A DNA stretch of 63,590 nt, the filler included, from Collodictyon triciliatum (Eukaryota): the NCBI GenBank assembly GCA_043381765.1. It is 5 parts of 5 records of this genome, joined end to end, with 100 filler letters (N's around TTAATTAATTAA, not from the genome) between each part and the next. Parts side by side here need not be neighbours in the genome. Positions count along the whole stretch, not along the records: positions 24,289 to 48,426 come from JBHJMP010001100.1; 4 more parts are not named here. One strand, given 5' to 3'. Under the pieces are notes generated by a model. The model ran no database searches, had not been told where the DNA came from, and saw only the letters and a list, made by a program, of their open reading frames with translations. Each line of letters starts with the position of its first letter. Positions within the stretch are counted from its first letter, which is position 1. Shown in pieces: positions 9,922 to 58,650 of this stretch. The position numbers and the translations under genes were made by a program.

Positions 9922-9934
9922 GTAGCCCCCTCGT

Positions 9935-10149
9935 TCTTTTCTTTCTTTTTTTCTTTCTTTTCTTTTCTTTTTTCTTCTCTTTTCTTTTCTTTTCTTTTCT
10001 TTTCTTTTCTCTTCTCTTCTCTTCTCTTCTCTTCTCTTNNNNNNNNNNNNNNNNNNNNNNNNNNNNNNNNNTTCTCTTCTCTTCTCTTCTCTTCTCTTCT
10101 CTTCTCTTCTCTTCTCTTCTCTTCTCTTCTCTTCTCTTCTCTTCTCTTC
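9935..10149. repeat. (TTTTC/TTCTC)n pyrimidine microsatellite interrupted by an N gap
   Basis: Seen directly. Confidence 0.95.
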
Positions 10150-10380
10150 AAGTATATTATCTTTTCGTCATATGGCCCCAATAAAATAGAGTGAAAGCTG
10201 TGATTCTATTACTCTTATGGATTTCTTCAGGGGCTTTTGTGGCGTCTGAATCGGGGTAGAAATCCAATTCATGACGACGCTTCGCCAGAGCTCTAACCCA
10301 AGATATCCTTTTATTTCTTTTTATATGTATAGCTGCTACTGACATAATTACCCAGTCCATCGACGGCATACGAGACATAA

Positions 10381-29494: not shown

Positions 29495-32400
29495 CTAAAG
29501 GTCTTCCATCGCGGGCACATAAGGTATCTTCACGACACGCCTTTCGAAGGTGAAACAGCGAGAAGGGTCGTTATAATACGACCAGAGACGACGACTGTTG
29601 ACCACCAGGATGTTGAACACAGCTAGTCGAAGCCCGCCCTCAGATTGCCACTCTCCTATCGGTGATTGTACCGTGCGGGGATATACGTCATAAATACAGC
29701 GCATCTCGAACAAAATCCAGAAGAGCAGAAGCCAAATTATCCCACTTAATACCGTCATCCAAACGATATCAGAAAATATCTTTGATAGCTTTCGTGCGCG
29801 TTCCCAGAGAACTTTCCATTTTAACTTTGAACGATGTTCCATATCAACAGCCCCTTTGCACAGGGCAGACTGGTGATTGGAGGGATGGTGATTTTGGCTG
29901 TTACTTGCTTGTGCTTTTTCGCTGAACAACTGACTCTGGTACATCTGAAATATCATCGAATAGCTCTTCATCAGTGCTCCCTCTACGTCATCAGTTAATC
30001 GTTGTCGTGTTTTCAGGGCTTCTGCAAGTTTTTCGACCTGACGATTATATGCTCCAAAAGGAATCGGGTTCGCATCAACCAAGCAGAATGTCAGGAAGCA
30101 GGAGTAAAGAGAAGGGAGGCACACAAAGACTCTTACACCTTCCCAACCTAGGTAATCAGCCAACAAGACGCAGAATAGTGTGCAGTTTCCCAAAAGGAAA
30201 CAGGTTTCAAAACTTCCCATTGCTCTAAAGACACTATCCTTCGAATATAGAAGTAATACCAACATTCGTTGGGCAAATAACCCGACAATAAGCGGCGTAG
30301 CAAGGAAATCCAATATAGTACTTTTGATACACAACTTAATGGAAACTGACATACCTCCCAGGAATACAATAATAACCAGCCTGGAACTCCATCTTCTTAA
30401 AGTATTTGACTTTGAGTCTGACCAATATCCCCCGAAAATGGCAGAAGATAAATTTTTACCCGAATCACATATAATACTCTCATGCAGAGGTGTTGAAATG
30501 AAGACCGGGCGACCTCTCATTAAAATATGTGGTTGGGAATCATATGATGCAATATTTTTCTCTTCTAGTTCTGTGTTTCCTTGATAATGAATGATGTTAT
30601 CACGGCTGTGGTTGTTGAATTTTCCGACGTGAACCGCGAGAGTAGACCTACGAGGTGAGTGTGAGTATGTGGGATTCCAGCCACGTTCATCTTCGTCAGC
30701 AGGAGATGTCGAAGTAATAGATAAGGAACGATGCCGTTCATGCTGAGGATTGGGATTTGCCTGTAATCCATTACTATCGGAATCACTGTTTTGCTCCTTG
30801 ATGTTTTTGTATAACATCGGTTTCACTTGCAAAGCTACTGATTCTTTCGGTATGTTCTCTGAATTATGAAAAACCGGTTGATTTGGAAGTGGAATTTCCA
30901 GGGCGCAGGCCATTTTCAGTTCATCTTCACTAAAATTGCATTTTACTGGATTATTTTTTGATGCAGTATCACCTACACCAGGCATATTGACATTTGTCAT
31001 GTCTTTTTGTGTGTCATCGCTATTTGAACACAAGGAGTGAGTGTGATTCATTTGTTTGGCTTCAAATGATCCATGCACTTGGTTAGTATAATCCATACAA
31101 GGCTGTGGGTCTGATATTGAATGAAAATCTGCTTCGGGGTCTAAAATCTCAAGCTTTTGATGCATATTGCCTGATGAACTATCTAGAGACGTCGACACCG
31201 GGCGATTTTGGTGTATTTTACGCGTAGAGATCTTGAAGTTGTATTGGGGAGTTGGAAGAGAAGACGTATGCGAAATTTCTTGGTTGGTTAGAGTATCTAG
31301 AGTGTCCCCACTTGCCTCCATTGCCTTGGGTATATCCTCTGTAACCTCAAAAATTGACTCTAGATTAGTTACCAAGTTTTCTGATTTTGAGGTGCGTCTC
31401 TTTCTGTAAGAAGGAGAATCGGGAAGGTAGTTATGGATACGAACTGATAGTGATTTATTTTTCGAAGCTCCTATCCCACTTAAACCATCGATGGATGATG
31501 ATTGAGAGAGCAAATCAATTCGATCATTACTTTGAGCACAAGTTGAAAGGTTGTATAAACTTTGCATGGATGGAAGTGATGAAGTTATGCAAGGGGCAGG
31601 AAAGGCTTCACCCGATTCTTGAAGTTGGCCTTCCAATTGGAGAATAGGAATCCAGGAGGCTACTAATGGAATACGAACCATTCTCCTGTTAATACAATGT
31701 ACTTTGAGGGGATAAAGAATATTTAGGACGAGCCTACGAAAGCTGAATAGAAGCACGTTAATGCAACACGCGCGGAAGATACCAAGGGTACTGATTTCGT
31801 TTCGGAATAAGTAGATTGAGCGAGGATAGATTGCGGGAATGACGCCGCATTCGACAAAAAAGTACATAAGGGTGGGAGTAGATGTAGCCATCAAAAATAC
31901 TGCGACTGTGTTAAGGCCAAGACTGTGTAAAAGTTCGATCCGGCGGTAAAGGAAGGTGAGAAACCCACGACCAGCTCGCGGATAATGAAGCATGAGTCTG
32001 TAAAAATTACGGCAGATACGCACATATCGCGACGGATGGCGGATTGGGCCGGTCTCTGGGGCATTATGTCGGTCATGATTCTGGGGCGACTTTTGTTCTT
32101 GAATGCGATTGAGGATTCGTTGTACCTGCCCAAAGCTCACTGGCCATGCGTCCATAAAAACGATATTGAAATAGCAGAGACAAAACATAGGGACCATGAA
32201 GTAGGCCTCGAAGGACCAATCAAGTAAGTCCCCGAAAGTTAAGACGGTAAGTGCGATGTTGAATAGAAGAAACAAGGATTCAAAGTGGGCCAAGGCGAGA
32301 CGAAATATCTTTGGCTGGAAGGTCAGGATTGAAATCGTGTTGTAGAGCATCCCACATATGGCGAACGATGCATACAGAATTCGAACGTGCACTCGAGGGT

Positions 32401-32785
32401 CTGGCTGGTGGATTGCCACAAAGAACCATAACACAGAAGCAAAAAGCGCCAAAAACAAAAAGTTTCCAAAGCGGCGAAAGAAGTAGCGGATGAGCCAGCG
32501 AGAAAAATGATGTCCAAACCATTCTGATGCGAACGTGACAGAAAAGTCGACGGGCATCAGGAAATCAACGTCACTAAAGAGAACAAGCCTTTTTCGAAAA
32601 TCATCTTCCTCCACTCCAGCTCGCAATATGTCTGCACTTGGACATTGCCTCTCCCCACCAATACAGCTCCCATGCTCGATAGGGTTTTGATTTTCCTCAG
32701 GTCGATCACTTACGCTGCTGGAACCAGCTTGGTGGTTGGGTGCAAAGCCATGGTCATCTCCGTTGTCCCCTCCACCGTTCTCCAT
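29495..32785 (-). CDS. Intronless ~1100-aa polytopic membrane protein with two homologous ~6-TM modules separated by a long disordered linker
   Basis: Single ORF (ATG MENGG at 32785). Module 1 FESLFLLFN..FGDLLDW..FMDAWP..IYPR..NVLLFSFRRL..RRMVRIP aligns by eye with module 2 FETCFLLGN..LADYLGW..LVDANP..VYPR..NILVVNSRRL..RRVVKIP. Confidence 0.88.
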   Translation of the reverse strand: MENGGGDNGDDHGFAPNHQAGSSSVSDRPEENQNPIEHGSCIGGERQCPSADILRAGVEEDDFRKRLVLFSDVDFLMPVDFSVTFASEWFGHHFSRWLIRYFFRRFGNFLFLALFASVLWFFVAIHQPDPRVHVRILYASFAICGMLYNTISILTFQPKIFRLALAHFESLFLLFNIALTVLTFGDLLDWSFEAYFMVPMFCLCYFNIVFMDAWPVSFGQVQRILNRIQEQKSPQNHDRHNAPETGPIRHPSRYVRICRNFYRLMLHYPRAGRGFLTFLYRRIELLHSLGLNTVAVFLMATSTPTLMYFFVECGVIPAIYPRSIYLFRNEISTLGIFRACCINVLLFSFRRLVLNILYPLKVHCINRRMVRIPLVASWIPILQLEGQLQESGEAFPAPCITSSLPSMQSLYNLSTCAQSNDRIDLLSQSSSIDGLSGIGASKNKSLSVRIHNYLPDSPSYRKRRTSKSENLVTNLESIFEVTEDIPKAMEASGDTLDTLTNQEISHTSSLPTPQYNFKISTRKIHQNRPVSTSLDSSSGNMHQKLEILDPEADFHSISDPQPCMDYTNQVHGSFEAKQMNHTHSLCSNSDDTQKDMTNVNMPGVGDTASKNNPVKCNFSEDELKMACALEIPLPNQPVFHNSENIPKESVALQVKPMLYKNIKEQNSDSDSNGLQANPNPQHERHRSLSITSTSPADEDERGWNPTYSHSPRRSTLAVHVGKFNNHSRDNIIHYQGNTELEEKNIASYDSQPHILMRGRPVFISTPLHESIICDSGKNLSSAIFGGYWSDSKSNTLRRWSSRLVIIVFLGGMSVSIKLCIKSTILDFLATPLIVGLFAQRMLVLLLYSKDSVFRAMGSFETCFLLGNCTLFCVLLADYLGWEGVRVFVCLPSLYSCFLTFCLVDANPIPFGAYNRQVEKLAEALKTRQRLTDDVEGALMKSYSMIFQMYQSQLFSEKAQASNSQNHHPSNHQSALCKGAVDMEHRSKLKWKVLWERARKLSKIFSDIVWMTVLSGIIWLLLFWILFEMRCIYDVYPRTVQSPIGEWQSEGGLRLAVFNILVVNSRRLWSYYNDPSRCFTFERRVVKIPYVPAMEDL

Positions 32786-33452
32786 ATTGTGAGCGCCTGT
32801 CCTACAACACACTCGATCAGTGCTCTGAGTAAATTATTTTTTGGGGAGCGAGCATCTTCTGCGTGTTATCAATGACTTGGTGCATTTGTGCTTAACCATA
32901 GCCTGATCTATTGCGTGTTGTTGACTGTGCTTTACAAAAGGATGGAAGAAAACTAGTTGTTTGTCAACAGCTCCTGTTTCATTTACGAACGAGTGCTATG
33001 CGACAGGCGAACGACGCAAAGAAGCACATTTCGTTTGTGGGGCACACTGGCGCAAATGAGAGACTAAAGTGGAAATTTTGAAGCGGTAATCCTTTAAGAA
33101 TCCATCCATTTGCGGAAGCGATGCTGGGCAAAAAACTACATAAAAAATGTTTCTCAAAAAGGATGCCAGTCCAATTCACGCGTTTCTCTTAACAGGGGCA
33201 ATTCTCCGTTATTTTCATGCGCTCTTAAACATGTAGAATATATAAAAAAAATCAAACAATTCACGAACTATTCCATTTTCTTCAAAATAGCTTATCAAAC
33301 ATATTTAAATTATATTCCGCATTTAGATGAGGAATTCTCGTACTTTTGCCGCAAATCTGGTATGGTGAATTAAAAAAAAAAGAAAGATAAAGATGATAGC
33401 CGTCGCTTGTTGTGGGGAAGTTTATTGGGTTGGCCACAGTCGGGCGAGGGCA

Positions 33453-35157
33453 TTAATGCAAGACAGACAGATAGACAGGTCGGTAGATGACTAGGTTGCA
33501 ATGTAGTTCACGCACGGCACGATGAGCTTCTTCCTCAGTCTCAAAGGCAATGAGAGTACGGTTCAACCTAAAACAACAGAGAATGATTCGATACGGCAAA
33601 TAAAAATCATATATACTAGCCGCCGAGATATGTATCAAATTGGGTCGGTTATGTTGACCAGTTCTATCTGTATTACAACTCACGCAGGAATGGATACGCT
33701 GGAGCCTGGGATGGTCTTGAATCCTTCCAGAAACTTGCCCACCAAGGAGAGCATAAGAGCAGGATTGCATCCTTGGAATGCAACAGTCTTACCAGGGTGT
33801 TCAAGGAATGTTTTGTGCTGAAGAAGCTCTTTAAACTTTGTTTCTGTTGCCTACAGGAGAAAGATGCGAAAACGATGACGGTCATGCGATATTAAGTAGG
33901 GCATGGAAAGTTACGGCCGCGGTTTATGTGTCTGTCCAGGGAGTCAAAGCTGGGTATTTCCAAATGATTTGTGAGGCCTAAAGCATACGTACCAAAATGA
34001 CTTTTCCCATCGAGGTTCCAATAGAACTTTGCTTCAGTTTGGTATTTGCGTCAGTTTCAAGCTCCTTACCAAGTTCGACAAACCATTTTCCTGTGGGGAG
34101 GAAGTCCTCCTGTATATACATGAATCCATAAATTTAATTTATTGACCCGCATTTTGTTCGCCGCTGATGATATCATTCGCGTATATCTCTACAACTTTTT
34201 TTTTGTACATATCATGGAATGGAGGTAAAGATATGTAAACGCAAGGAAACACACTCGAGCATAAGAGTGTTGAGCCTTGACAACTTCTAGACCAGCATTC
34301 TGGAAATATCGCACGACATCACCATGTGTCAGGGTGCGAGACGTCGATGCGTATATCACATACTTGGATGGGGTGATTGGGGGTGATGGTCCTAATATGT
34401 AGGGTGTATGTAAAGTCACCGCACAAATCGTACAGACAAGATGGAGTTGGTTTGTTGAGATAGACGCGGCAAACTTCTGTCTAGGAGAGGGGCTCTTGAC
34501 TTGTTGAAGTTTGAGAACTGGGGCCCTGAAGATCTTGAGGAGCCGTTCCGGTTGGAAGGGACGAACGATCCTACTCACAAGAGAGAGAGTAGTTATTCAT
34601 GATAAGAGGACTATTTCTGGTGTATGTATGCACCAGAATTCTAACAGGAGAGACATAATTACTCCGTGTGGGTGCGGCAGGGGCTCTCTTGTTTGGCGCA
34701 GTTGTTGGGGGAGCCTCCACTGAGGGGGTAACCTGATAGAGAATCGAAGATATGCTATAAATGATGCCTTCGATCGCTAATATTTTGTTATGCTTTGGCT
34801 GCAGCAAAGTATAAATTACTCAAGGAAAGCTTACCTCTGAGCTTTCATGCTTTGCTGCTTGAGGCAAATCGATTAATAAAATATTTAAAAGGCCAATGTT
34901 GACCAAAAAAAAGGAGGAAAAGAGGAAAGCAGGAAAATAATAATAAAAAAATAAAAAAGGAATAGAAAAATAACAGCCTTCTTCCTCCATGATTCATACA
35001 AAGCAGTAATAGAAGAGTGGTTAAATATGAAGCTGAGATCACCTGCGTGTGTGGAGACAAACTTGGAAAAAAGAGAGGAGCGTGCATGGAAAAAGGAGCC
35101 AGCCTGCAGCGCCTGCAACGGACTTGAGCCCAAGGTACGGTTGAAGAACAAACTCAT
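33453..35157 (-). CDS. Putative mitochondrion-targeted RRM-like protein (multi-exon)
   Basis: N-term MSLFFNRTLGSSPLQALQAGSFFHARSSLFSKF lacks acidic residues (presequence-like); C-term RTLIAFETEEEAHRAVRELHCNLVIYRPVYL is RRM beta3-alpha2-beta4-like. Confidence 0.6.
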
Positions 35158-35893
35158 TTTTTCGCCTGCGCTTCTAAACAAAAAGCAGGGGGTCGCGCTT
35201 CATTCTAGTTTTTGTCTTTATTTTTTGGGACATGCATATTCACACTTTTCTCTCAATGACAAACGCGATCCCAGATTAGTTTCTATTCACTCTTGGTCTT
35301 GTCTCCCTCGCATTCGTGTTTCTCTCACTGCTTTTTTTCTCGAATCCTTTTGCTTCGAAGCAGACAGGATTTGCCAAACAAGCAGAGCGGAATCAAAGTA
35401 GCCACAAAGTTAGCCGACATAGCCCAAACAAATTCCACATCAGGAATGGAGATGTGATCTATCAAAAAAAATTCGTGCGTTTTGCACAAATGATACACAC
35501 TGTCATGCTAATTTATTCTCCACTTATTTTGATAGTATATATATTTTTTTTGTCTATTTTTTTTTTTTTGCTTTGACTCCCGCTGTCGCTCTTGCTTATC
35601 TTCTCTTTTTATTTTGGCTGGGAAATACACAAGAAGAAAATAAAAAACACATCGTTAAAGGAAAGGCTTGAGGAGTCGTGTTTGCTCCTTCCGCTGCACG
35701 AGTTACCAGTAAATCAAACAGCACATCTCATCCTCGCGCTGCTGCAGACTTTCACGCGCCATTATTGTGCGGTCATCGTCTTTTTTTTTCGATCGCTTGC
35801 AACTCGAGTGTTCAAAAAGGACACTCCAAACGACCGTCCGATGCATCAGAGTCACCACCTGATTTTCCCGTCAAACAGCAGACCTTGCGACAC

Positions 35894-38800
35894 ATGGACG
35901 CCCTGCAGAGCGAAGGAAGGGATCGGGCCAGCGCAGAGTTGCCTCCAGGTGCATCCGCAGAGCACAAAGAGCAGCCATCGCAAGAGTCAAACAACTGGGA
36001 TCCTTTGCCGGATGACCATTACACACTTGCAGAAGCAGAGACGGAGGCAGAGGCAGGGGCAAAAAGCCACTTGCACGGGTTTGGGTCTCATCAAAGACAC
36101 TTGAACGCCGGGCCTCTGGAAACTCCGCCGATGCAGAGGGCCACAGCAGTGGAGCTGGCTGACATCCTTTCGTGCCCGCAAGGATTGCCCCTGGGCCAGA
36201 CAATCAGAGAAGGCCATCCTTTGTCGCTGCCCGCTGTGCTATTCTCGTCTGATGAGCGCTCTTCACTGCTCGGCGATGGTTTAACTTCTGCTAACGGCTC
36301 CAGTGAGTTGCGTATTTGTCCTGCTAAGAACGCACCAAGAATCGTGAATCGTACTATCTTGATATTTATACAAGTGATTTCTAATTATGATGTGATTCAA
36401 TTTTTTTTCTCTTGAACTGGTTGAGGTAGCACGGTTATATGTTCCTATATAAAAGAATTATGTTGAATTTATGTCAGAGATTTCCTAGTACTCGCCGTCA
36501 TTTCCTTTCTAACTATGCTTGCTCCAATCACCCACTAAATGTTTCCAACAAACAATCTAGACACAGACCACTTCAAGGAATTTTGGAGAACCATATCCCA
36601 CCCAGATGCGGGTGTTCTTGATGTGCCAGTTCACGTTATTCCACAAGGCGGAAGCCACACACCAACGGGGCAGCCTCTATCCGGCCTCTTGGTACCCTCC
36701 GATGGGAATATACGCACTCCTCGTTTTCCAGCCCCTCGTTCGCTCTCTAAACGGCTTGACGACTGCTTGAAGCTGGGTGATAGTGGTTCCGACTTCAGTC
36801 CTCTCCATTCAGACTCTTCAGGTGTCCAAGAGACCCATGACCGAAGAACTGGACTTTCGACTGATATTCAAGTACATACCTCACTTAGGTACTGATTGTT
36901 CCCCAATCATAATTCATCTTTATTTCATGAGGCTATCCCAACCATAGCATCCAGTTATATACAATCTTGAAAATTTTTTCTATATTCGATTGCAAGCATT
37001 TTCAAATGAAAGCTATTAACAACTTTATTTGACCTTTCTATCAATCTATATTTTTTTTTCGAAACTACAACTATCTTAAATGAAAGCATGCACACAAACG
37101 CACCCTCTTTTCCCATTCATATGTCATTTGTACAAGCCATCAATATGACCTATTCTATTTTCTTTCTTCAGCGAAGCATCTTCTGGTACGGAGCCAATAA
37201 ATAATGATACTGCCTTTGCTGCATTCAGCCAACATCCAAAACTTAAAGTCCCTAAAGGTATAGAAAACATCGCTTTTAAAATATATTTGACCTAAGAAAA
37301 TTAGCTTATTGTTTGTCACTTTTATAGAACTTTATGAGTCACCAGCGACTCGTAAGGAAGGTTTAAGCAAGTCTTTGCGGCCTTCTATTTATACTGATCA
37401 ACCTTTATTTAATGACGAGGGTGATTCTGATTGGGATATAATGAGGTGGCTCCTATTTTTTTTCTCTTCTTTTCTCTTCTTTTCTCTTCTTTTCTCTTCT
37501 TTTCTCTTCTTTTCTCTTCTTTTCTCTTCTTTTCTCTTCTTTTCTCTTCTTTTCTCTTCTTTTCTCTTCTTTTTTTGGGGGACTATCTATACCCAAATAT
37601 GATTCTTAATGATGAAAACACATATTTTCTCTTTAAGATATAAATGGTTTGTTATAGTCGTCCCCTTACCCAATATGATATAGTTCTGCACCCAAATCAC
37701 CAAGCGGTCCTGTAATCAATAGTGATATGCCCTCATGTATGTATTTTTTTCTCTGTTTGCCTTTGATGGACAATTTAACGAAATATAAAAATGTCATTCA
37801 TCGTGTTTTATTCGATTTTTCTTCTCTTTTTTTTTTATTTGTCTCCAGCCATCATCCAACAGCTTTAAGATAATAAAATTTTGATTTTTTCTTGAATTCG
37901 CTAAAAATGATTAATCTAAAGCGGCAGATGTACCGTCGTGGATTTCTGAACTCCGTTCTGCATGGCAATCAGAATACGAAGCCATGGAGGTCTGCCTCTG
38001 CACTCACTTACATTACTCTGCAAATTTCATTTAAGAAGATAGAAACCCAATATATCGACTCATATGTCTATGGTGTAAGTTCTTTTGAGTTTGCCAAATG
38101 AACTAAAATCATAAAAACTATATAATAAACAAATTGGTAGCGCCAAAGTACAGTCACCACACCAAAGGAACATAGCTCTCGTCGAGAGGTAGTAATTTTT
38201 TTATTTTTTTATTTTTGCTCCTTTTATTCTTGAATTGGAGCATTCTACTAACGCATCCATCTAGAGCATTGGTCGCTTTCGGATGATGCTCAATAAAATA
38301 CACGATCGAGATGTAATTACCATTAAAATATGATTTTTATCTCCTACTTTTCCATTCTTCTCCATCAGAGTATCATGAAACTAAGTAATCATAATTCGAA
38401 AACAGCTCTCTTATATATAAGATGGCCATAAATAATCATTAAAGCAAGTAAGGCATAGGCTACACATTTTTATTTTATATACCAATTGTAATTCGTCCCT
38501 GTTTTTTTTCTCCGTATATTGTCATTTATGTGTATCAGAACGAAATGAGCCGGGCAACTGTTGAAAAGCTAAGGACACGATACAAAGATTTCATAGCCAA
38601 AAGGACCATCGTGATGATAAATACAGCAAAGGAAGCCGCTGCCCTCAAAGTTCAAGTATGTTGATTATCAAAGTGTATGTTTTAAGTCAGCGTAAACTAA
38701 CCAATTAAACTTAATACTATTAAAATCACTTAGTCAAGCAAGGAAATAAAGTTTATGATGTGCCACGGACAAAAACCACTTGTTCCTATGTAAAAAAAAA

Positions 38801-39314
38801 AAAATGCCTAAAATGAATTATGAAATAAAGAAAAGCTTTGCAATTTTTTATGTGAGAACCTCTCGATATGTCAAAAGTATGGTGCAGCAATTATAACTCA
38901 TATAATTTAACACGCGCTTTCTTTGATATGTCGCAGGTATAGGAGACTAGGAATGTACAAGAATGCCAAGTTTGAATGCCTAGATTCTACAGAAGAGCTT
39001 TTTATTCTCCAAATGAACCATGCTGTTGCACTTATGAGCGAATTTCTTGATATTGGATTATCAGTAACCTTAAGTTCTAATTTATTTTAAACTAAATGAA
39101 GGGAAAGGGGAGAATTAGAAAAAAAAATTATAATCTATATTGATAAATATAATTGTGAGAGTCCATTAATATGCTCGTATAAAAATATTGTAAGGTTTAT
39201 CGAGGACAAAAATTCCTTGACCCACCCTTGATAATTCAAAGTCTACCAGAAGGTAGGTCGTACCTGCGGCAAATCAAGGTATATACTGTGATTAACCCAT
39301 GTATTGTGCAAAAA

Positions 39315-39353
<39 letters not shown>

Positions 39354-41334
39354 TAACGCTTTGTGAAATGGTTTGATTCTAATGAATTCTACATTCTAAC
39401 AATAATTAGTGGCTTGAATTGAGAATAAAAGAACTGGAGAGACAGTTCACGGCCATTCGAAAAAGCGTACCGTCGCTTTGTCATGAAGACCGAATAAACA
39501 TTTTTCGGTAGTTCATTAGATATGAATGATTATAGTCAATACGTTACAGAAGGCTTAGATATTATTCGACGAGATATCACCCTGAGAGGTTTTTAAAATA
39601 GGAGCTTGATTGGAGGTACTAAACACAACCCTGAGCTGGGTTACCATGAAGAAGTGGAGCATCACCAAAGCACATTCAGAGATTTACTTTGTGATGAAAG
39701 ATACCACAGTGGTTTGTTCATATGTTTACATGTATCGCCTGGTTAAATTATCTTTTCTATTGTAAACTATATAAATATTGGGTGTGTACAAATAGTTCGA
39801 GAGCCATGATTCAATCCTCTGAATTCGATTTTATTTAATTTTATCTATGCAGGAATGAAAGTGCGGCAGTTCTTGCACATAGTAAACGAGGAGTCGAATG
39901 GAAATAATCCTGGGGATATCACAGACTTTATTCAGGTGGGTTGATTCTCTTTTACACTTTCCTCTCAATTTACACGTCCGCTACACATACTGTCTTGGTA
40001 CGGGATATACAACTATAAATGCTGATGAAACAATTTAATTATCGCGAAGGAGTACTCTCAAGAGTTATGCAACGAATGGAACCTACAAGATACCATTCAT
40101 ATTTCAACAACGAATGTTTATTTGTCAAGAATAATATTTCCGAGAATTCAGAAATTCGTGTCTCGCTTTGATAGGTAACCCCACGGATTTGATTGATATA
40201 CATATTTTGCCTTTATATTTCCTTTTATTATACTGTGTAGGATTTTAGTTTTTTTTTTTTACAACAGCGGCGAAGAAAAAATGCATGACATGCTTTACCC
40301 AAAGCTCATGAAAATGTACTTTGAGGAACAACTGGTCGAAAGTAAAGCAACTTACAAGGTGATATTGCTTTTATGATCTTTTCTTTTCTTTTCTTTTTTT
40401 TTAAAAAAACCCTTACCGCACACGGTTTAGTTCCTCCCACCTGGGAGAAAAATAGATGATGTGGTTCTTCCTGCATCCTCAATTTTGTCTGAGATTGGAC
40501 TATATTGCGTAAACAAATTAATAAAAATTGTCTCGTAGATTTCTACTATAAGTAATCATTTATACTACTATCTTAATTATGATTTTTGGATCTTTTTTTT
40601 AAAAAATAAATCAAAAGGTTCCGTGCGACATTTCTTACTGTATTTTGCGTGCTGGCCGAAAGCTCGCTCAGGAAATTCATCAACTAGCCGGAAAGTCAGT
40701 AGAATTGGGTTTGTTTTTTTAAACCCAGAGGATGTCATACTCCACGCTTACCTCTCAGTGTAACATGCTCTTCATTAGGCTTTATTAGAACATAAACATT
40801 TTCATACTTCAAAATAGCTGCAGATGATATTTTGCCCCTATTCACCCAAGTAGTGCTTAACGCTGATTTGCCCTCAGTAATTTATCCTCCCTCGATAAAA
40901 CCATGCTTTAACCCCTTACCAATTACAAGTTTTTTTCTATTTTTTTTTTTAAAAAAAAGTCACCCATCTTTACATTTCCGAATCAAAAAAATATGATTTA
41001 GCTTACAAAACATATTAGAAAGATATCATGGATTTGATTTTTATTTTGAAAATACGAGTAAGCTCTGAATCAAACACACAGGTCAATCAGTGCCTTGGCT
41101 TCTTGGATAGATTTTCCACAGAGCATGATGACATATCAGAGTTTGGGTACTGGAGGGCCACCCTTCGAGGTCTCGACTCGTTTCTTTTTATGATTTAAAT
41201 GACATTAACTTCGTAGACGCCAAATATTATCGTGTGCAACTCTGTCTTGTATTTTTATATATGAAGCCTCCTCACTCCCAACATCTTTTATGATTGCAGC
41301 GTCCGTCTCTCACATCGCATCCCTGGGTAAGTAA
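35894..41334 (+). CDS. VPS9-domain Rab5-family GEF (multi-exon; start approximate)
   Basis: C-terminal AADDILPLFTQVVLNADLP...LGFLDRF...SEFGYWRATL is the VPS9 catalytic signature; last exon ASVSHIASLGK-TAA at 41334. Confidence 0.85.
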
Positions 41335-41674
41335 GATGAATCACACAGTAGCCAATCAAAGAGGCAAAGCAAAGAAATTCAATTCGCAGACCTATCCTCA
41401 TCTTTTCTCTTTTTCTTTTTTTCCGCAACCTTTTACATCCTATGTACCGAATAAAAATGATAGTGATGGACAATCGCCTACAATACTACGAAGTGAAGCA
41501 AAAAGTGTCTCGTTAACCGAAACAATAAGTATGTGATGGAAAAACTGGTCACTTATTCAATAACGCAGCATAAATAATGTAAATTATACAAAATTCAGTT
41601 TATTGGATTCAGTTTGAAATGTAATTTAAAGAACCGGTCTACCATCAAAACCTCAATAAAATTGGCGAGAGAAA

Positions 41675-43536
41675 TCAGTTTTCGTCCAGAGGTGCCCAAA
41701 AGAACGTATTTGGAATATCTCCATTATTGGGTGACTCACCCAACCGAAAAGATATACGAGAATCACCCAAACCTGCCCTGGTCTGATCGATTTCGGCATT
41801 CCTAGACTTTGTCAAGTCTAGTGCGAGGTCTGCATACCGCTGACGAATCTCACAACTAGACAACTTCCATTCGATAGATGTTTCTCTTACAAATGCGTGG
41901 TTGTTAAAAGCAATCCCATCCTTTTTTAAGGCACTTCTTTTCTCGGTCAAAAAGGCCATGAATCCATTAATTGGTCTTTTCTTCTTTGGCTTCGTAGATT
42001 TGCCAACTCTATTTCTTTTTTCGAGGAGAGGATCTAATACTGGTGAATGGATACGAATTGAAATCAGATTGAAGGGAACCGTAAAATGATAATGCAATTT
42101 CCATATGCGACTGCTTTTTTCAATTCCTAATGTTTTTTTTTTTTGGCTTTGTTCTTTTTCTTTATTTGCCTTTTTTTTCTTTTTTGTAAAATAATATATA
42201 AATAGAGAAAGATAGAGGTATAATAACACAGGCTGCAGAGGTGTTTGGGTGGTTAGTAAAATATCTTGTCACCAAAATTTGAGGAGACTTCATGTACCTT
42301 TAGACTCACTAGGACTGTCACCTCGGTCAGATGAGACCTTCCCATTACACGTTGGGGTAGCGTCTGTTAATTCTTGTTCTTCAAGCTGATAGTCCTTCGG
42401 CGAGTCCTCGTCATTCCGTCTAGGTCTTCGTTGGTCACTATTTTCTGAACTCCCAGAAAGGGAAGGAATGTCGGGATTTTTGTCCCTGCTGCATAATTTC
42501 TTTGATTTTCGCATGGACGGATCTACAAGGATGAAATTTGGAGAATTACTGGAGTTTGGAGTCAGCAGAAAGCTTTCGGTGAGGTGTCCGTGCTTGTCAT
42601 ACTTTGCAGTATGAGATGCATCCTCGGCTGATTCGCACCCTGCTTTACCCTCATTGAACTTTGTGTGTGTTTGTGGATGGAAGGAAGCATCCATGTCATA
42701 GGGATTCTTTTTGAAATCTTGTGCTGGGTAACTGAATGATGAATTTGGTGTTTTTCCAAGGAAAATTCTCATTTCTGACCTTTGGCTGGAACTGCTGTTG
42801 GTAGATTCAATTCGCTGCTCTTCCTGATTCATCTCGAGATATTCCTCGCCACAGAAAGCACTGGTCTTTGTTAAGTTCACTGGGCAAATAAAGTCATTAA
42901 ATTTGGTATCATGGTGTGTTTGCCGTGCACCATCAAATGATGTGATATCCACATATTTTGCACCGGCATTGCAGCACAAGCTGTATAATTCATTATTGGA
43001 GGCTTTTGTTAGACTAACAAATGGTCCTGTCTTGATTGCTGAGCATCTTTCTTGCATGTGATAAAGCGTATCAAAATCTCTATCGTAAATATCCGAAGTC
43101 TTCGACTCTCTAGGCATTTGGGGAAAAAAAAAGTACCGTCAGTGCAACCAGTCATTCATAAAAAAACAAATAAATAATTGTTCAACTTATAGGAACGGCA
43201 ACTTTTAATTTAAAAAAGAGAGATCATGTATTCATAATTACAAACAAACAACAAACCATCACATATTAGAATACAGATAAATCTATGATTTAAATTAAAT
43301 TGTATCATTTACGTTTGCTGCCTTTGTTCAAAATGTACAGAATGGGCTACATCAAAATCTGAAAATAAGCTATTCACAAAATCGATCATCTCTTCTTGGT
43401 CCTCAGAAATATCTCTAAAACGATTTATGGACTTGAATCAACCCATGACATTTGCGTGAGTGATTTACACGCAGAAAAAAAGAAGGGCACTCAAGTAGGG
43501 GGAAAAAAAAAGAAGGGAGAAGTACCTTCCCGACAT
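41675..43536 (-). CDS. HMG-box transcription factor-like protein (may have further upstream exons to about 44520)
   Basis: Last exon KKKRPINGFMAFLTEKRSAL...NNHAFVRETSIEWKL..EIRQRYADLA is an HMG box; large exon about 42296-43110; upstream exons MSGR|DISEDQEEM...EQRQQT join in frame. Confidence 0.75.
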
Positions 43537-44538
43537 ATCTTTCAGCTAATTTTATCAATTTTATTTTAAATCCTGTGACACCTTAATTTATTAAAATTGT
43601 CAGAATATTCGAGCTTTTTCACAGTGTATGATGAGTATAATTAAAAATTGTATTAGGACATGGAATAAGTGTTTCTGAATTAATCACTCTCTTTTATCTG
43701 CCTTCAATAGCCTCTCGTCATTTGATAAGATCAATAATTGCATATTGGATTTGAAGACTAAACAAAATGTCTCTGTAAAGGCAGGTAGGGGCACTAAGGG
43801 ATGAAATGTAATGACAGTTGTAATAAATAACAGAAAGGAATTTTTTTGGAGCAAAATGAAGGACAGGAGGATACAACATTACAGATGTAAAAGTTGAGTT
43901 TTGTTTGAGAGAAATGTAAAACGTCGTTGAAAATTTGTAGAAAACATATTCGACGCTTAACCACCTTGCGAGGGTGAGATTGAAGCGTGAAGTAATATGT
44001 GTTTCATTCGTGGTGCTGATGATGTTTGCTTCAAGTCCTCCCTTCTCGCGGATGGTGTAAGGTAGAATATATGTGGCTGGTGGTATGCGGACCATTCGTA
44101 ACAGTAGTTGATTTGAAAGCGAGATAAAAAATTCCGACATTGCTACTTGTGACACGGAGCCTCGTTCTTCCAATCAGTGATTATTATTTTTTTGATGGAC
44201 CCGTGGTGGTTTGGGTTGCTTTATACCAACAGTTGCTCCAATACGAGAGGTACTGCAACCCGGGTACTTTAACCAGGTGGGTTATAAGGGTCTTGTGTGT
44301 CCTGTTGAAGGGCATGGTGGTTATGCTGCTGGACTTTTTGTGGTTGGGGTTGGGAAAACATGTGGTCGCTGGTCGCCAGGAACAGAAATCGCGTGGTGCG
44401 ACCAACATCTGAAAGAGGAAATAATTTGAATTTCAAATGCTAACAATGCTGCAGGGGGTGGTAGACCAGAAAAGAAATGTCGTGGTGCACTTGGCGCGTA
44501 CGCAGAGCAAACACTCACCCATAATCACAACTTACTCG

Positions 44539-44541
44539 TAC

Positions 44542-44614
<73 letters not shown>

Positions 44615-44677
44615 TANNNNNNNNNNNACACATACACATACACATACACATACGCATGCACATACACATACATATTC
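44539..44677. repeat. (CATACA)n microsatellite with a small N gap
   Basis: Seen directly. Confidence 0.95.
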
Positions 44678-44705
44678 AATAATGTGAGAATGTAAAAATC
44701 TAAAC

Positions 44706-45657
44706 ATGGCTTTGTTTCAAGAGGAAAAAATCAAATGGCGCTCACGCAGACCAATCTTAGACGACATCCCGTCGCCATTCTTTTTCCACCTCAAGAACGA
44801 AAGCTCGTCTAACGGTGTGCAGTCTATGCAGTTCTCGATGGCTATGGCCTACTCCAAATTCTTTCGATACAAAATATCGCCGCCGACAACTCTACAAAAA
44901 GTCAAAGCATCAACGGTGGGGAGAAACGCTAGGCATCACCCACACCCCGCTCACCGCGAGCTGGAGACAAGCACGAACCCCGCAAGTCCTTTCAAATCAC
45001 CGCTCTCTAATGCATAATATCACCAATAGGTAGCTATGGATAGGCACACGCGCGACAAAAGCTGGCAAGGTCTCCCAACAATGCACACTTTGCAGCAACA
45101 GTGATGAGTCCATTGAGCATACATTTGTGCAATGTCCCTTCGCTCAAAACCTGCGCGAAACAGCCGGTGTGATTCTTCGACTGACACTCAAGACGGCTGC
45201 AGCTATTGGCCCAATCCAGGTGATATTTGGGCCTCTGCAACTACTGCATCCAGATGCGAAAACATTCTGGGCATTGACGCGAGGCCATTTGCTATGGACT
45301 ATGTGGATAGCACGCACGTACTCTCGCAAAGCAAGACTCAACAACCAGCCACTCATTCCTGATAACAGGCTGAATGACATCATACAATTCTCTTTCCTCA
45401 ATAGCTTTCTTCGCCACCTGCACGTTCTCTACTACTCGGACGCTGTGAGAAGAAACATGTGGATAGAGGCTGAGAAAGATATATAACCTCGCCTTGTATC
45501 TCTCATGCAAGCACAAGACCCAGGCCACAGGCCACAGGCCAAAGCGCAGGATGCAATTCCTGATGGTCGTCCACTCCGCCACACGGCAGACAAGAAGCAT
45601 TCGTACAAACAGAGATTACAAAACTATACTGCCTTGTACAAATTCAAGATAAAAAAA
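44706..45657 (+). mobile_element. Degenerate 3' fragment of an L1/Tx1-like non-LTR retrotransposon ORF2 (family B)
   Basis: zf-RVT-like CTLCSNSDESIEHTFVQCPFA...TRGHLLWTMWIAR motif with in-frame stops/frameshifts; A-rich end near 45657; homologous to 57996-58391 (minus). Confidence 0.82.
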
Positions 45658-45919: not shown

Positions 45920-47971
45920 TCATCGAAACCTAAGGTCACCAAGAATACTGGCCCACACCTCTTCCTCAGACCCATACTTTCCGATGAGATTGCGGTATCG
46001 ATCTCTGCAGTCGAGATTGTTTCTGTCAAACTTTTTCAATTTCATGGAAATGTATTTCCAGGAGGAACCTTTTTTACGTTCGGACACTAATATGAAATCT
46101 TCCTGTGAATGCCACACAAATCTTTGGCGGTGTCCAGATGTCAAGTAAATCGGACGAGTTTTAGACTCTTCGCCTGTTGCCTTTATCTTTGGCAAGGATC
46201 TATGTTTCTTGGGCAGGCGAACACGCTCTAGAATATCTCTAAACACCTCAATATAATGCTCCAGTTCTGAGATATCTCGTCCGAGATGTTCTCTAACGTG
46301 GGCTCTTGCAACCTGGCACACTATACTTATTTTTGTGCGTGTGGCCATTCTTTTTCTATCCCTGCTAAGTTGCTTTCTTACCTGTTGCTCTAACCCAGGA
46401 GTAGACTTTACAAACATCGAAAAGCAATGACGCATGACAAATGGGAAATCTATCTTTTCCTGACTTTGGTCATCCATTTTGTTCTTTATTAGGCCCTTCA
46501 TTCTTGCCAAAAAGGATTTGTAATTAACACCAGCTTCCCAAGATGAAGGCTTCAGTTTTATCTTGTGAATTTTTTCAGAGTTGGATAAGCCGTCAACCTG
46601 GTTGTCATAACCAGACCATTCCTCCTCATCGATTTCGATGGGTGGCGGGACTGTTCTAATGATGTATGAGTCTTTTGATAGATTCAACTCCGATTTACTT
46701 TTCGGTTCCCATCCAGAACAGTCGAGATCATTCTTTGAATAGGTTTCCTTTTGATTAGCAGCATAATTCTGCTGAATCACAGCCATTTTTTGAAAGCCAG
46801 CGCGAAAGCTATCAAAAGAGAACATGTTAGGAGGAAAACCAGCTTGGACAGCTCGAGTTTTTATATTTTTACTCATCGCGGCAGACTTCATACCCCATAG
46901 ATACGTTTCTTGGAGCTCTTGCGATAGATTCCAGTTTTTAAAATTGATAAGCTCCAGAGAAAACTTTTCGCGAAGGTATAGCTCAAACCAATAGAGAATA
47001 TTCAGAGAGGATTTTAATCCGATGTTACCTTCTAGAGAGACCATTTGGTTATGTTCAGGATTCCCTTTAGCAACTTTTAAAAGAATATGTATGCAGTGAG
47101 AATCTGAGGAGCTCCTGGGTAGTTTAGAAAAACTAAGGATGTGGCCAATTTTCATGTGCTGAAAGGTAATAGACCTTGCCCCCGTCGATAAAGCCATTAA
47201 CCAGAGGCTTGCCTCTTTGGCTTTGGATGAGAAACCATCCGGAATGCAGTCTATGATTCTTGCTATATCAGATATTAAAATGGGCTCTTTTCTCGTGGGA
47301 GTTTCTTGGTCAAAAGCTAAATTGCGTAATGTATCAATAGTCTCTTTAATTGTGGGACCGATATCTGGCGAAAGCTCTGATGGATATTGAATTTTATTAA
47401 TTCTTCTTAAGCCAGGAATAATTATAAATTTAACACTATCTATGGCATAGCCTGCATCCCTGACCAAAAAAATAATGAATTTCTCGATTGTTTCAGGCTG
47501 TAGAGGCCATGGCTCTCTGGATGACTTTTTGCAAAATTCTTGGTACATTTCTTTTGACCAGCTATCCTTTCGGACAGTCGACTTTGAGTGGCTAGTTGGG
47601 GAACTGTATGAATGATCCACTGGATTCAACTCTCTTATATCAAGAGCCTGAAATCCCATAGAAATTTTCCGCAATCTTTGGGATAGGTCAAACAGGGGTT
47701 CGCATGGTGTAGGGTTCATTTTTCTTTTCTTTTTAGACTCTTTACTATCAACATATTCTTCAGCACTCCAGTCGGGGTCTAAATCGCTGTCGGATGAAAT
47801 ATAGTCTTGCTCATAGTCCATATCGTCTCCAATATGAACGTATGTCTCAGAGTCAGACACCTCGAGGGTAGTCGAACAGCAATTAAGTTCCCAATCCCCC
47901 TGGTCTTCAACAGTTATAGGAATATAGCAGTTGGTTGCCAGACCAACAACATAGAATACATCCTCTTCCAT
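45920..47971 (-). CDS. Tyrosine recombinase (Crypton/DIRS-like YR fold) fused to a C-terminal Myb/SANT domain; catalytic residues apparently altered
   Basis: Uninterrupted ORF from ATG 47971. Integrase core-binding-like helices (MYQEFCKK..PWPL..IEKFIIFL), LMALSTGAR, KVAKG, FSFDSFRAG, GWEPKS; C-term WHSQEDFIL..GSSWKYI..RNNLDCRDRYRNL is a Myb repeat. Confidence 0.85.
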   Translation of the reverse strand: MEEDVFYVVGLATNCYIPITVEDQGDWELNCCSTTLEVSDSETYVHIGDDMDYEQDYISSDSDLDPDWSAEEYVDSKESKKKRKMNPTPCEPLFDLSQRLRKISMGFQALDIRELNPVDHSYSSPTSHSKSTVRKDSWSKEMYQEFCKKSSREPWPLQPETIEKFIIFLVRDAGYAIDSVKFIIIPGLRRINKIQYPSELSPDIGPTIKETIDTLRNLAFDQETPTRKEPILISDIARIIDCIPDGFSSKAKEASLWLMALSTGARSITFQHMKIGHILSFSKLPRSSSDSHCIHILLKVAKGNPEHNQMVSLEGNIGLKSSLNILYWFELYLREKFSLELINFKNWNLSQELQETYLWGMKSAAMSKNIKTRAVQAGFPPNMFSFDSFRAGFQKMAVIQQNYAANQKETYSKNDLDCSGWEPKSKSELNLSKDSYIIRTVPPPIEIDEEEWSGYDNQVDGLSNSEKIHKIKLKPSSWEAGVNYKSFLARMKGLIKNKMDDQSQEKIDFPFVMRHCFSMFVKSTPGLEQQVRKQLSRDRKRMATRTKISIVCQVARAHVREHLGRDISELEHYIEVFRDILERVRLPKKHRSLPKIKATGEESKTRPIYLTSGHRQRFVWHSQEDFILVSERKKGSSWKYISMKLKKFDRNNLDCRDRYRNLIGKYGSEEEVWASILGDLRFR

Positions 47972-48374
47972 GGCCTTCTGCGATATTCTTTGAGAGAAAA
48001 TAACCTTAATAAAAAGAAGGCACGACTTAAAAATAAGAATGATAATGAAAAGGCAGAGGAAGCCAAGGGAACCTTGAGGAACAATACAAAAAAAAGCTGG
48101 TGACGGGCGGCTGCAGAAGCGTTGATCAGAACGCTGATGGTCTGTTAAGGATGGGTTAGGGATTTTTATTAGGGACAACTGCTTTCCGCTGGATGATAAA
48201 ACTATCTTGCTTTTCTGATTCACGCAATCATCTACGCCCCAGTACCCAGAGTTTCCTAGTTATTTTCTGCTTCGTTTTTTACTTCTTTTTTTTTTTTTTT
48301 CAGTATATTCCAGGGTTTTTTTGTTTGGGTTTTATTATTGTGATCTCTCCACTGAATATATTCTGTTTTGTTTA

Positions 48375-50934: not shown

Positions 50935-51599
50935 GGCTGTGGTTGTTGCTGCAAGTATGGTTATTTCGCTCGCTTGGTCGTCTCAACATGCCTCGGAGAT
51001 AACCGGGTAATGCTAGGCATTGTATCCGGCTTTGCTGCTTTGCACACAACACAAGAGCGTGTTCGTCTTTTATTTTCTTTTTCTCTCTTTCTTTTTCTTC
51101 TTTCTTTTTCTTCTTTTTTTTCTCTTTCTTTTTCTTCTTTTTTTTTCTCTTTCTTTTTCTTCTTTCTTTTTCTTCTTTCTTTTTCTTCTTTCTTTTTCTT
51201 CTTTCTTTTTCTTCTTTCTTTTTCTTCTTTCTTTTTCTTCTTTCTTTTTCTTCTTTCTTTTTCTCTTCCTTTTCTCCTTCTTTTTTTCGAAGCCCGCTCT
51301 GACTGAAAAGCAAACTGCAACTTGACCACATGTCGAAAAGGCCGAAGGATCGGAAGGAAACGACATCGCAAAAACGGATCGCACAAAACACAAACGTGGA
51401 TTAGAACGCATCACCACAAACGCGTTTCTTGATGAACATTCGAATAGTTAAATAATATCTGGAAATTATAATTCTGTGGTGTTATTTAGCACTTGTTGTC
51501 ATATTAATGGTCACCCATGCATAAAAGTGATTCAACATATCTCCAATCATGCATTTTATTGACTAATTTTCTAAACACCAAACCCTTGTTGAGTCTGGC

Positions 51600-52442
51600 T
51601 CTTTCTACATTTCATCTACAACATGAAAGGCACTTTGCTGAATCTCAGAAGGCTGAGCGAGCTGGAAGACACCTGCCGCAGATTCATCACTACCAATAAT
51701 CAAAAATATAAAATCAAGACACAAGCCCGCGTATATCAGTTACTCCCGAAACACCGCGCCGTACCTCTCAATATCTCCAACAGAGAGCTGTGGATAGGTG
51801 CGCGTGTAGTCCATGCAGCAACGACTCCTCCAGAATGCGCCATGTGCCATAGTGGAGATGATTCTATCAAACACACTTTTGTGGAGTGCTCCCTTGCTCT
51901 AAAAGTGACAGAATCTACCCACAAGATGCTCTCTGAGCTTGATTATGCTCCCAACCGACTCAGCGCGTCCGACATCTTGTTTGCCCCACAATACCAAATG
52001 ACCTACGACTCTAGAATACTTTGGACAGTCACAAGGGGACATATGCTGTGGTTATTATGGAGTGTGCGCGCATTCTCCCGCTCTAATGATTCACCCGAAC
52101 GAGAAATCAGTGTATCCAGGCTTGAAAGCCTCGTGCAATACAGCTTCCTGAGCAGTCTGCTGAAACACGCTCGCATTCTTCGCTACTCTGACCGCAAACG
52201 GAGAGAGATGTGGGAATATGTCGTGAGATATCTCCCAAAGCATATCCAACCCCTGCTGCCCACGCAACCAATCAACCAGTTGGGACGCCCACCTGACCAG
52301 CTCGCTATCACTGATTTCTTTCCAGTGCTACCTTCCCAAAAGTGTCGTCTTCTATTCGCGTTTGCTCTCTCCTATGCGCTCCCATCCCGCCCCTTTGTAT
52401 GGCATAGCCTCGCTGCACTTAGAATCGAATAAAGGAAAAAAG
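51600..52442 (+). mobile_element. 5'-truncated L1/Tx1-like non-LTR retrotransposon ORF2 3' end (family A), frame still open
   Basis: CAMCHSGDDSIKHTFVECSLA (CCHC zf-RVT), TRGHMLWLLWSVR; AATAAA plus A-rich tail at about 52428-52445; second copy at 57772-58650. Confidence 0.85.
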
Positions 52443-57771: not shown

Positions 57772-58650
57772 TCACACAAGATGCTCCCTCCGAGGTTGAC
57801 TATGCCCCAACCGACTCAGCGCGTCCGACATCCTATTCGACCTGCAATACCAAATGACCCATGACTCTGGAATACTCTCGGCGGTCACAAGGGGGCATAC
57901 GTTGTGGTCCTTACGGAGTGTGCGTGCGTTATCTCGCTCTAATGATTCGACCGAAAGAGAAATCAATCTATCCAGGCTTGAACGCTTTATCCAAATTTTT
58001 TTTTTATTCTTCCTTTCAATTTTTTGCAGGATGGTGGAGATGTTGGCTTTGGTTCGCTAGCCATCGTTTGCATGGGCGCTACTTGGTGACCGGGTGGCGG
58101 AGAAGTAGTCGGTAATCAGTAATTGCATCCTGCGGTTTGGCCTGTAGCCTGGGTCTTGTGCTCGCATGAGAGGTACAAGGTGAGGTTTAATCTCTTTCTC
58201 GGTCTCTTTCCATATGTCTCTTCTCACAGGGTCTGAGTAGTACTGAACGTGCAGGTGGCGAAGGAAGTCATTGAGGAAAGAGATTTGTATGGTGTCATCC
58301 AGTCTATTATCAGGAGTGGATGGCTGGTTGTTGAGCTTTGCTTCGCGTGAGTATGTGCGTGCTATCCACATAGTTCATAGCAAATGGCCTCAAAGCAATA
58401 CAGCTTCTTGAATGGCCTGCTAAAGCACATCCGCATTCCCTGCTACTCTGGCCGCAAGCGAAGAGAGATATGGGATAGTGGTGAAACATCATCTCGATAT
58501 ATTCAGCCCTTACTAACCACCGAGCCTATCAACCAGTCATTTCACCCGCCTGACCAATACGCCATCACTGATTATTTCTCGTAATGCCGTATCCCTGTTT
58601 ATGTCTTACCACTGCGATTAAGCCAAATCCCGTCGCGCTTCTGCTAGTCA
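57772..58650 (+). mobile_element. Decayed family A LINE 3' fragment, interrupted by a family B insertion
   Basis: 57772-57994 and 58395-58650 are colinear with 51918-52400. Confidence 0.88.
57996..58391 (-). mobile_element. Family B LINE 3' fragment with poly(A) tail, nested antisense in the family A copy
   Basis: Begins with a T run at 57996 on +; the minus strand encodes MWIARTYSREAKLNNQP..., homologous to 45280-45590. Confidence 0.9.

Follow-up and report, generated by a model that had tools for sequence, protein, structure and literature searches.

Introduction

Does an open reading frame (ORF) that joins a tyrosine recombinase (YR) to a Myb/SANT repeat encode the enzyme of a mobile element, a host protein descended from such an enzyme, or the remains of one in decay? 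This question is raised by a locus in the genome of Collodictyon triciliatum (GenBank assembly GCA_043381765.1), which lies within a 63,590-nucleotide stretch of joined contigs, referred to throughout as the window, and whose protein product we call P0001. An earlier note, made from the sequence of the window, had left the choice between a Crypton-like DNA transposon and a host gene derived from one. On balance we favour reading P0001 as a catalytically inactive, DNA-binding derivative of a Crypton-type YR with a C-terminal Myb repeat, either domesticated or repressor-like. What is new here is possibly twofold: a family of Crypton-type YRs that end in a Myb repeat, and within it a catalytically dead, perhaps domesticated member.

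Results

A recombinase fold with a Myb tail

The ORF of P0001 (Table 1) runs for 683 codons and a stop on the minus strand without an internal stop, and its frame stays open upstream to position 48223, with the first ATG at 47971. Its homologous part, over which relatives are colinear (residues ~122 to ~675), is free of introns. The layout proposed in the earlier note, that of a ~680-aa ORF without coding introns comprising an acidic N-terminus, a YR core-binding and catalytic region and a Myb repeat at about 45985-46125, was upheld throughout, with the absence of introns established for the homologous part and the repeat placed at residues 616-662 (45986-46126). The same note had found no gene for reverse transcriptase (RT), RNase H, capsid or polB on the contig, and these domains are likewise missing from the ORFs that we scanned: the ten longest stop-to-stop ORFs of the window, three of them on the contig of P0001, and nine of the 19 ORFs of at least 90 aa at 33000-44400 together with one adjoining, a selection that falls short of a full six-frame scan.

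The first 80 residues of P0001 hold 23 Asp and Glu residues against two Lys and Arg, and are followed by a basic cluster, KKKRK (residues 80-84), which we take to resemble a nuclear localisation signal. An AlphaFold2 model built with a 48-sequence alignment reached a mean predicted local distance difference test score (pLDDT) of 77.9, with values below 50 at residues 1-102 and 113-125 and above 90 for most of 130-400 and 470-680. When residues 120-450 of this model were compared by VIA-align with residues 28-341 of Cre/Tre, 283 residues were aligned with a Z-score of 17.2 and a root-mean-square deviation of 4.0 Å. Cre/Tre was also the top match of Foldseek in the PDB (E 7.7e-6, template-modelling score 0.62, normalised to the target), and further VIA-align matches were XerH (Z 14.8), lambda Int (12.9) and Tn1549 Int (12.4), with type IB topoisomerases and Flp at Z about 10. 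The modelled structure thus confirms for P0001 the two-domain YR fold that had been proposed. By sequence, P0001 has no Pfam match to Phage_integrase, and the profile of its family reaches Cre at a marginal E-value of 0.069.

Beyond the catalytic domain lie a helical middle domain specific to the family and the Myb/SANT-type repeat. Comparisons of the middle domain with RNase III and Dicer gave Z-scores of 6-7.3 over ~100 residues, within what helical bundles yield by chance and with no RNase III match in Pfam; the likeness is probably that of a generic helical arrangement, and we rejected this assignment. The three-helix Myb/SANT repeat is recognised in P0001 by both sequence profile and fold. 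Pfam Myb_DNA-bind_6 (PF13921) matches residues 620-663 with an E-value of 7.9e-4 and 20 bits, under its cut-off of 22.9 bits, and the family profile matches c-Myb at E 1.8e-21. Folded alone, residues 455-683 gave a pLDDT of 88, and the structural matches of residues 615-683 included Reb1 (Z 7.6), Cdc5, TRF1 and the R2 repeat of c-Myb (Z 6.1, 28% identity). Sequence matches of P0001 to SPATA9 and to immunoglobulin light chains were at chance level and were discarded.

Two catalytic residues lost within a diverged segment

In the alignment of 48 sequences, Arg266 is present in all 46 that have a residue at that position, and Lys302, Arg390 and Trp421 in all 48. The catalytic His and the nucleophilic Tyr are each found in 47, and the sole exception at both columns is P0001, which carries Asp387 and Leu431 there. 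A wider set of 206 rows aligned to the family hidden Markov model (HMM) tells the same story: 129 read RKHRWY, one truncated row reads --HRWN, and the remaining rows lack one or more of the six catalytic columns, which leaves P0001 as the only row complete at all six that deviates from the family hexad. In place of the full catalytic set R-K-H-R-(H/W)-Y it has R-K-D-R-W-L. Without its Tyr, a YR is unable to make the covalent 3'-phosphotyrosyl intermediate; lacking both His and Tyr, P0001 is therefore no autonomous transposase by the standard YR mechanism. Another Tyr, Tyr436, stands five residues past the canonical column.

These losses sit within a segment, residues 387-440, that has diverged as a whole. 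Of its 27 family-conserved columns P0001 keeps nine, the lowest count of the 48 sequences; over the same columns the other 47 keep a median fraction of 0.85 and a minimum of 0.58. Elsewhere P0001 retains 16 of 23 conserved columns in the core-binding domain, 43 of 57 in the first part of the catalytic domain, 9 of 11 in the middle domain and 17 of 19 in the Myb repeat, so that the segment differs sharply from the rest of the protein (9/27 against 85/110; Fisher p=3.5e-5). The middle and Myb domains are kept as well as in the median family member, or better. The segment is helix-rich and modelled with lower pLDDT. A compensated frameshift was considered as the source of the divergence and rejected, the other two frames containing stops and no family motif.

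Pieces of P0001 of 151-257 nucleotides (nt), falling between 46604 and 47713, were recovered from four freshwater metagenome runs. The 257-nt contig piece, spanning 46806-47062, has no differences and independently confirms the Asp387 codon, which makes a sequencing error at that position unlikely. The 151-nt piece spans 46604-46754, including the Leu431 codon, with one difference whose position is not given. A word search of sequencing runs returned none that shared more than 0.10 of the sampled words and listed no RNA run, a result without bearing on expression.

In a quick maximum-likelihood (ML) tree P0001 is sister to another member, P0005, with a Shimodaira-Hasegawa-like approximate likelihood ratio support of 84. 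Its terminal branch of 2.47, against 0.93 for P0005 and a median of 1.15, is the third-longest of the 48.

The YR-Myb family

Word-based homologue searches yielded only two matches and one match, respectively, and the family surfaced when 1.84 billion representatives were scanned exhaustively with HMMER, with clusters drawn at 50% identity. At E-value thresholds of 1e-3, 1e-10 and 1e-30 it comprises 337, 197 and 78 clusters, the closest relative of P0001 being 35% identical. The family has no Pfam model of its own. Of the 150 matches listed, 53 extend into the Myb region, and in 34 of these a single matched stretch spans core and repeat alike. Pfam Myb models match 30 of the 48 aligned members, and Phage_integrase seven (E<=0.01); among ten relatives scanned, the Myb scores exceed the Pfam cut-off. 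Pfam scans of sets of 10, 9 and 48 members detected no RT, RNase H, DDE transposase, C48 peptidase, DUF3504, GCR1_C or DUF3435, and the coding capacity of the members scanned is in this sense YR-only.

Most of the 30 members whose sources were looked up lie on contigs of 2-8 kb, from metagenomes or from Logan, and the named hosts are two oxymonads, Monocercomonoides exilis and Blattamonas nauphoetae. One member bears the label of a Rhizomicrobium metagenome-assembled genome, and our guess is that its contig was mis-binned. In the viral contigs of IMG/VR, 30 pattern matches included no relatives, leaving a viral or virophage context unsupported. Individual members vary in architecture. Among the 48 aligned, a chromodomain (PF00385, E 1.1e-8) occurs in one and a C2H2 finger in a second, and at locus L004 (1271-4834) an open frame without a Pfam match continues for more than 500 residues beyond the Myb repeat and off the end of the contig.

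Signs of mobility

The five members of one 90%-identity cluster lie on five contigs of M. exilis, and the family is on that ground multi-copy within one genome. Further indications come from a comparison of 25 metagenome loci. The ends of the contig L002:1-3567 overlap by 155 nt with one mismatch, defining a circular or tandem unit of 3412 nt and 38% GC, whose sole ORF of at least 120 aa encodes an intact 574-aa YR-Myb protein and which holds ~1.7 kb of non-coding DNA. This unit is a candidate for a complete element or an excised circle. At six of the 25 loci (Table 1), two diverged copies of the family lie head to tail, ~3.2 kb apart; across loci, positions 265-1224 of L015 and 3520-4476 of L017 share ~65% DNA identity. 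Such pairs may result from circles integrating beside resident copies, or may represent a tandem gene array.

Since its members combine an intact hexad with multiple copies, tandem or circular units and, in those tested, no RT, the parent family looks from sequence like a small mobile element of Crypton type that encodes a YR alone, extended by a Myb tail, and would count as a Crypton as the term was first used (PMC3212892, PMC13465315).

Surroundings of the locus

The window is a composite of contigs separated by artificial linkers (Table 1), most of whose junctions fall in homopolymer runs of A or T. P0001 lies on the contig at 24289-48426 alone, and sequence past 48426 is no true neighbour of it; the real sequence upstream of the ORF stops at that position, inside a poly(A/T) run. 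No second copy of P0001 occurs within the window, and a search of the flanks for terminal repeats or target-site duplications returned only matches that were of low complexity or of chance length. Cryptons typically end in direct repeats of 4-6 bp and lack terminal inverted repeats and LTRs (long terminal repeats).

Downstream of P0001 lies a dispersed repeat (Table 1), with an 83% identical copy on the minus strand at 58090-58391 and many copies of 84-96% identity in the four freshwater metagenome runs. It resembles, by tblastx, an ORF with zf-RVT similarity at 51722-52327, within a plus-strand region (51593-52432) that matches Pfam zf-RVT at E 1.3e-5, and is probably the 3' relic of a non-LTR retrotransposon. 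The zf-RVT-like relics lie on the opposite strand to P0001 or on another contig, and represent a separate dispersed repeat. The position of this repeat caps the 3' flank of any putative element at ~320 bp.

The nearest recognisable host-type gene is an ORF with an HMG box on the minus strand at 41675-43138 (PF00505, E 5e-7), and a 282-codon open frame of like orientation stands immediately upstream of it; the two are probably exons of one gene. Farther along the contig, P0004 is an intronless open frame of 1112 codons (29495-32833, minus strand) without a Pfam match. Its two ends seemingly hold similar modules of several hydrophobic helices, separated by a long, low-complexity stretch rich in Ser and Asn. 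Elsewhere in the window we noted a cyclin-domain ORF on another contig (56694-57428, plus strand; PF08613, E 2.1e-12) and a GC-rich island at 7600-10200, which reaches 61% GC against ~35% in its surroundings, includes two N gaps and stays open over long distances in several frames of either strand.

Table 1. Features of the P0001 locus, with coordinates in the window, and loci of related copies.
Feature	Coordinates	Strand	Residues, basis or remark
Whole YR-Myb ORF (P0001)	45920..47971	-	683 codons + stop; relatives colinear over ~122-675
N-terminal region, acidic, predicted disordered	47597..47971	-	Residues 1-125; composition and pLDDT
Core-binding (N-terminal) helical domain of YR fold	47297..47590	-	Residues ~128-225; aligns with Cre N-terminal domain
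YR catalytic-domain fold	46622..47296	-	Residues ~226-450; Arg266, Lys302, Arg390, Trp421 kept
Decayed active-site segment	46652..46813	-	Residues 387-440; conserved-column count
Codon GAT, Asp387	46811..46813	-	Catalytic-His column (FHSLRSGF); His in 47/47 aligned relatives
Codon CTA, Leu431	46679..46681	-	Nucleophile-Tyr column (RYVK); Tyr in 47/47 aligned relatives
Family-specific helical middle domain	46187..46594	-	Residues ~460-595; pLDDT mostly >80
C-terminal Myb/SANT-type repeat and terminal helix	45923..46138	-	Residues 612-683; Pfam, fold, family profile
Dispersed repeat, not part of the YR-Myb gene	44733..45600	+	Copy at 58090-58391; zf-RVT similarity
Microsatellite	44520-44690		
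Artificial contig linkers	24189-24288, 48427-48526, 55298-55397, 60558-60657		N44-TTAATTAATTAA-N44, six-frame-stop
Tandem loci	L012, L015, L016, L017, L020, L021		Lake-metagenome contigs

Discussion

A recombinase that may bind without cutting

Of the two options left by the earlier note, both have support, to differing degrees. The family as a whole looks like a YR-only mobile element; as P0001 lacks the catalytic His and the Tyr nucleophile, the option of a derived gene fits it better. Our reading of P0001 as an inactive DNA-binding derivative rests on the computed fold, membership of the family, the lost catalytic residues and divergence concentrated in one region. It adds to these that the protein would bind DNA without cleaving it, would be located in the nucleus and would have come under selection for a new role, and that its parent would have moved in a particular way.

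The parent would be a single-gene, YR-only element of ~3-3.5 kb which, by analogy with Cryptons, may move through YR-mediated excision and integration. From it P0001 would have retained the two-lobed DNA clamp of the YR, both active-site Arg residues, the Lys and the Trp, the helical domain and the Myb repeat, and would have lost the general-acid/base His and the Tyr nucleophile. Most likely it binds DNA, possibly at sites resembling recombination sites, and does not cut it. Such a protein could be a DNA-binding or chromatin factor recruited by the host, in the manner of Gcr1, Ndc10 and the DUF3504 proteins, or it could repress active relatives or compete with them without cleaving DNA. There is precedent for the former: host genes have descended from Crypton YRs with missing catalytic residues, among them the DUF3504 genes, Gcr1 and Cbf2/Ndc10 (Kojima and Jurka 2011, PMC3212892). 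The decay of P0001 is, by that analogy, of the kind seen in recombinases kept for DNA binding.

A fuller scenario may be drawn, which we offer tentatively and hold to be somewhat doubtful in its entirety. In it, a freshwater protist took a Crypton-like YR-Myb transposase into service as a protein that binds DNA sequence-specifically and does not cleave it. This would be an independent case of Crypton domestication, in a lineage that is neither animal nor fungal. The parent would be an unnamed, widespread Crypton superfamily, uniting YR, helical domain and Myb repeat, that propagates as circles of ~3.4 kb or as head-to-tail arrays in a range of protists, oxymonads among them.

Weighing the alternatives

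Several observations weigh against the inactive DNA-binding derivative as we have described it. The flanks of P0001 look repeat-rich and not gene-like, with the retrotransposon relic 320 bp downstream, a microsatellite and the poly(A/T) break. Selection on P0001 is judged from one sequence set against distant relatives (<=35% identity), and its long branch could reflect simple decay, or close relatives missing from the databases; the tree itself is a quick ML tree only, in which P0001 is flagged as a long branch of unsure placement. Tyr436 could serve as a substitute nucleophile. As to the parent family, the overlapping ends of L002 could have arisen when a tandem repeat was assembled and need not denote a circle, and the six tandem loci derive from one lake-contig series and may represent a single organism.

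Much of this would suit a dead relic, that is, an inactivated copy of a YR-Myb element decaying neutrally with its frame still open by chance. Repeat-rich flanks, two missing catalytic residues, a terminal branch among the longest and the lack of any orthologue above 35% identity in protein database searches are all as such a copy might show. Neutral decay, however, should be even and should break the frame. What is observed is decay at residues 387-440 only, with all 683 codons open and the middle and Myb domains downstream well kept. Because the decay is confined to the active-site segment, in an open frame with its flanking domains preserved, it favours a non-cleaving binder over a neutral pseudogene, and we consider the relic less likely, though still a serious rival. 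An inactive paralogue encoded by the element, retained to repress, or compete with, active copies in the same genome, would account equally for conserved DNA-binding parts and lost chemistry. YR-fold repressors of mobile elements exist by way of analogy (MrpR/YopR and SroF were among the fold matches), and diverged head-to-tail pairs could place active and inactive copies side by side. Yet no active copy was seen within the window and an inactive second copy was demonstrated in none of the tandem loci, and such a regulator seems to us improbable. More improbable again is an active recombinase of a new Crypton-like family working with a non-canonical site, for example with Tyr436 as its nucleophile. 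The intact ORF, the four catalytic residues that remain, the nearness of Tyr436 to the canonical column and the apparent mobility of the family would permit it. Against it, the other family members strictly conserve His and Tyr, which argues that neither residue is dispensable. In P0001 the entire segment around these two columns has diverged and is modelled with lower confidence, and the window offers no second copy.

Significance

No class of eukaryotic DNA transposons is understood as poorly as the Cryptons. To these, a large family ending in a canonical Myb repeat would contribute a further group and a wider host range, given its 337 clusters and its occurrence in oxymonads and many uncultured eukaryotes. 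If our reading of P0001 is true, the protein would be a natural example of the first step in the domestication of a recombinase, the chemistry lost and the DNA clamp and Myb repeat kept. The same route yielded the animal DUF3504 genes and yeast Gcr1 and Ndc10. Intact, compact relatives such as the protein of L002 are candidates for new eukaryotic site-specific recombinases. Domestication, the key claim, is argued from one sequence; the bearing of the family on transposon biology and on recombinase discovery is solid.

Comparison with known systems

With Cre, XerH and lambda Int, P0001 shares the two-domain C-clamp fold. Those enzymes are without the extra helical domain and the Myb tail, and P0001 is without their His and Tyr. 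The family hexad R-K-H-R-W-Y has Trp in fifth place in common with Cre. Comparable to P0001 in presumed function are the YR-fold repressors MrpR/YopR of SPbeta and SroF of phi3T, which bind DNA without recombining it and were matched structurally at Z 10-12. These are bacterial phage proteins of 6-8% identity, and the analogy is one of function only.

Among eukaryotic elements, membership of the YR retrotransposons (DIRS, Ngaro, PAT, VIPER) was rejected, RT and RNase H having been found in no family member tested. The Captain (DUF3435) of Starships is, like the present family, a eukaryotic YR with which a Myb/SANT domain is associated and sometimes fused. Starships are giant cargo carriers of Pezizomycotina, whereas the family consists of single-gene units of ~3 kb in other hosts; DUF3435 (PF11917) had no Pfam match in P0001 or the members scanned and appeared only as a feature lead at rank 18 in the ESM-Atlas. 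Because DUF3435/MYB hybrid genes are on record in Starships (PMC12256816), a fusion of YR and Myb is not unprecedented in principle. The suggestion in the earlier note that no YR element class with a C-terminal Myb domain had been described is, in view of these hybrids and of the GCR1_C domain of CryptonF, too strong. The family itself was not found described: our literature search met with no account of a Crypton-type YR fused to a canonical Myb repeat in protists, and a Repbase name for it may exist.

CryptonS elements of oomycetes and diatoms are YR-only, lack GCR1_C and have a conserved, unnamed C-terminal region, together with TATGG termini and C48 peptidase partners (PMC3212892). In the first three of these traits they resemble the family, as far as the description of CryptonS allows comparison. 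The three nearest feature clusters in the ESM-Atlas were commonest in Oomycota, Oomycota and Bacillariophyta, with scores of 0.91-0.92 that serve as a lead only; the family may prove to be CryptonS or may stand apart from it. CryptonF elements of fungi and oomycetes combine a YR with a C-terminal DNA-binding domain, GCR1_C, and are bounded by 6-bp terminal direct repeats (Goodwin 2003; Kojima and Jurka 2011, PMC3212892). Here the likeness to the family lies in a small element without RT, whose single protein has an N-terminal or central YR and a C-terminal DNA-binding domain. That domain is GCR1_C (PF12550) in CryptonF and a canonical Myb repeat (PF00249/PF13921) in the family, and GCR1_C was detected neither in P0001 (E<=10) nor in ten relatives (E<=0.1) or 48 members (E<=0.01). 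The hosts differ as well, being fungi and oomycetes for the one and oxymonads and environmental eukaryotes for the other.

Catalytically dead derivatives of CryptonF gave rise to the host DNA-binding proteins Gcr1, Msn1/Hot1 and Cbf2/Ndc10, and the DUF3504 genes (KCTD1, KIAA1958, ZMYM2-4, QRICH1, WOC) are domesticated CryptonA recombinases that lost residues of the R-H-R-Y tetrad (PMC3212892). DUF3504 genes are recognised as domesticated by their conservation across species, P0001 is known from one sequence, and the DUF3504 model (PF12012) matches neither P0001 nor the members scanned. What they have in common is a Crypton-type YR fold deprived of catalytic residues within a DNA-binding or regulatory protein, with the difference that in P0001 only the His and the Tyr are gone and both Arg residues are kept. 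Crypton groups have been defined largely by their accessory domains (PMC13465315), and in the family of P0001 that domain is a canonical Myb repeat.

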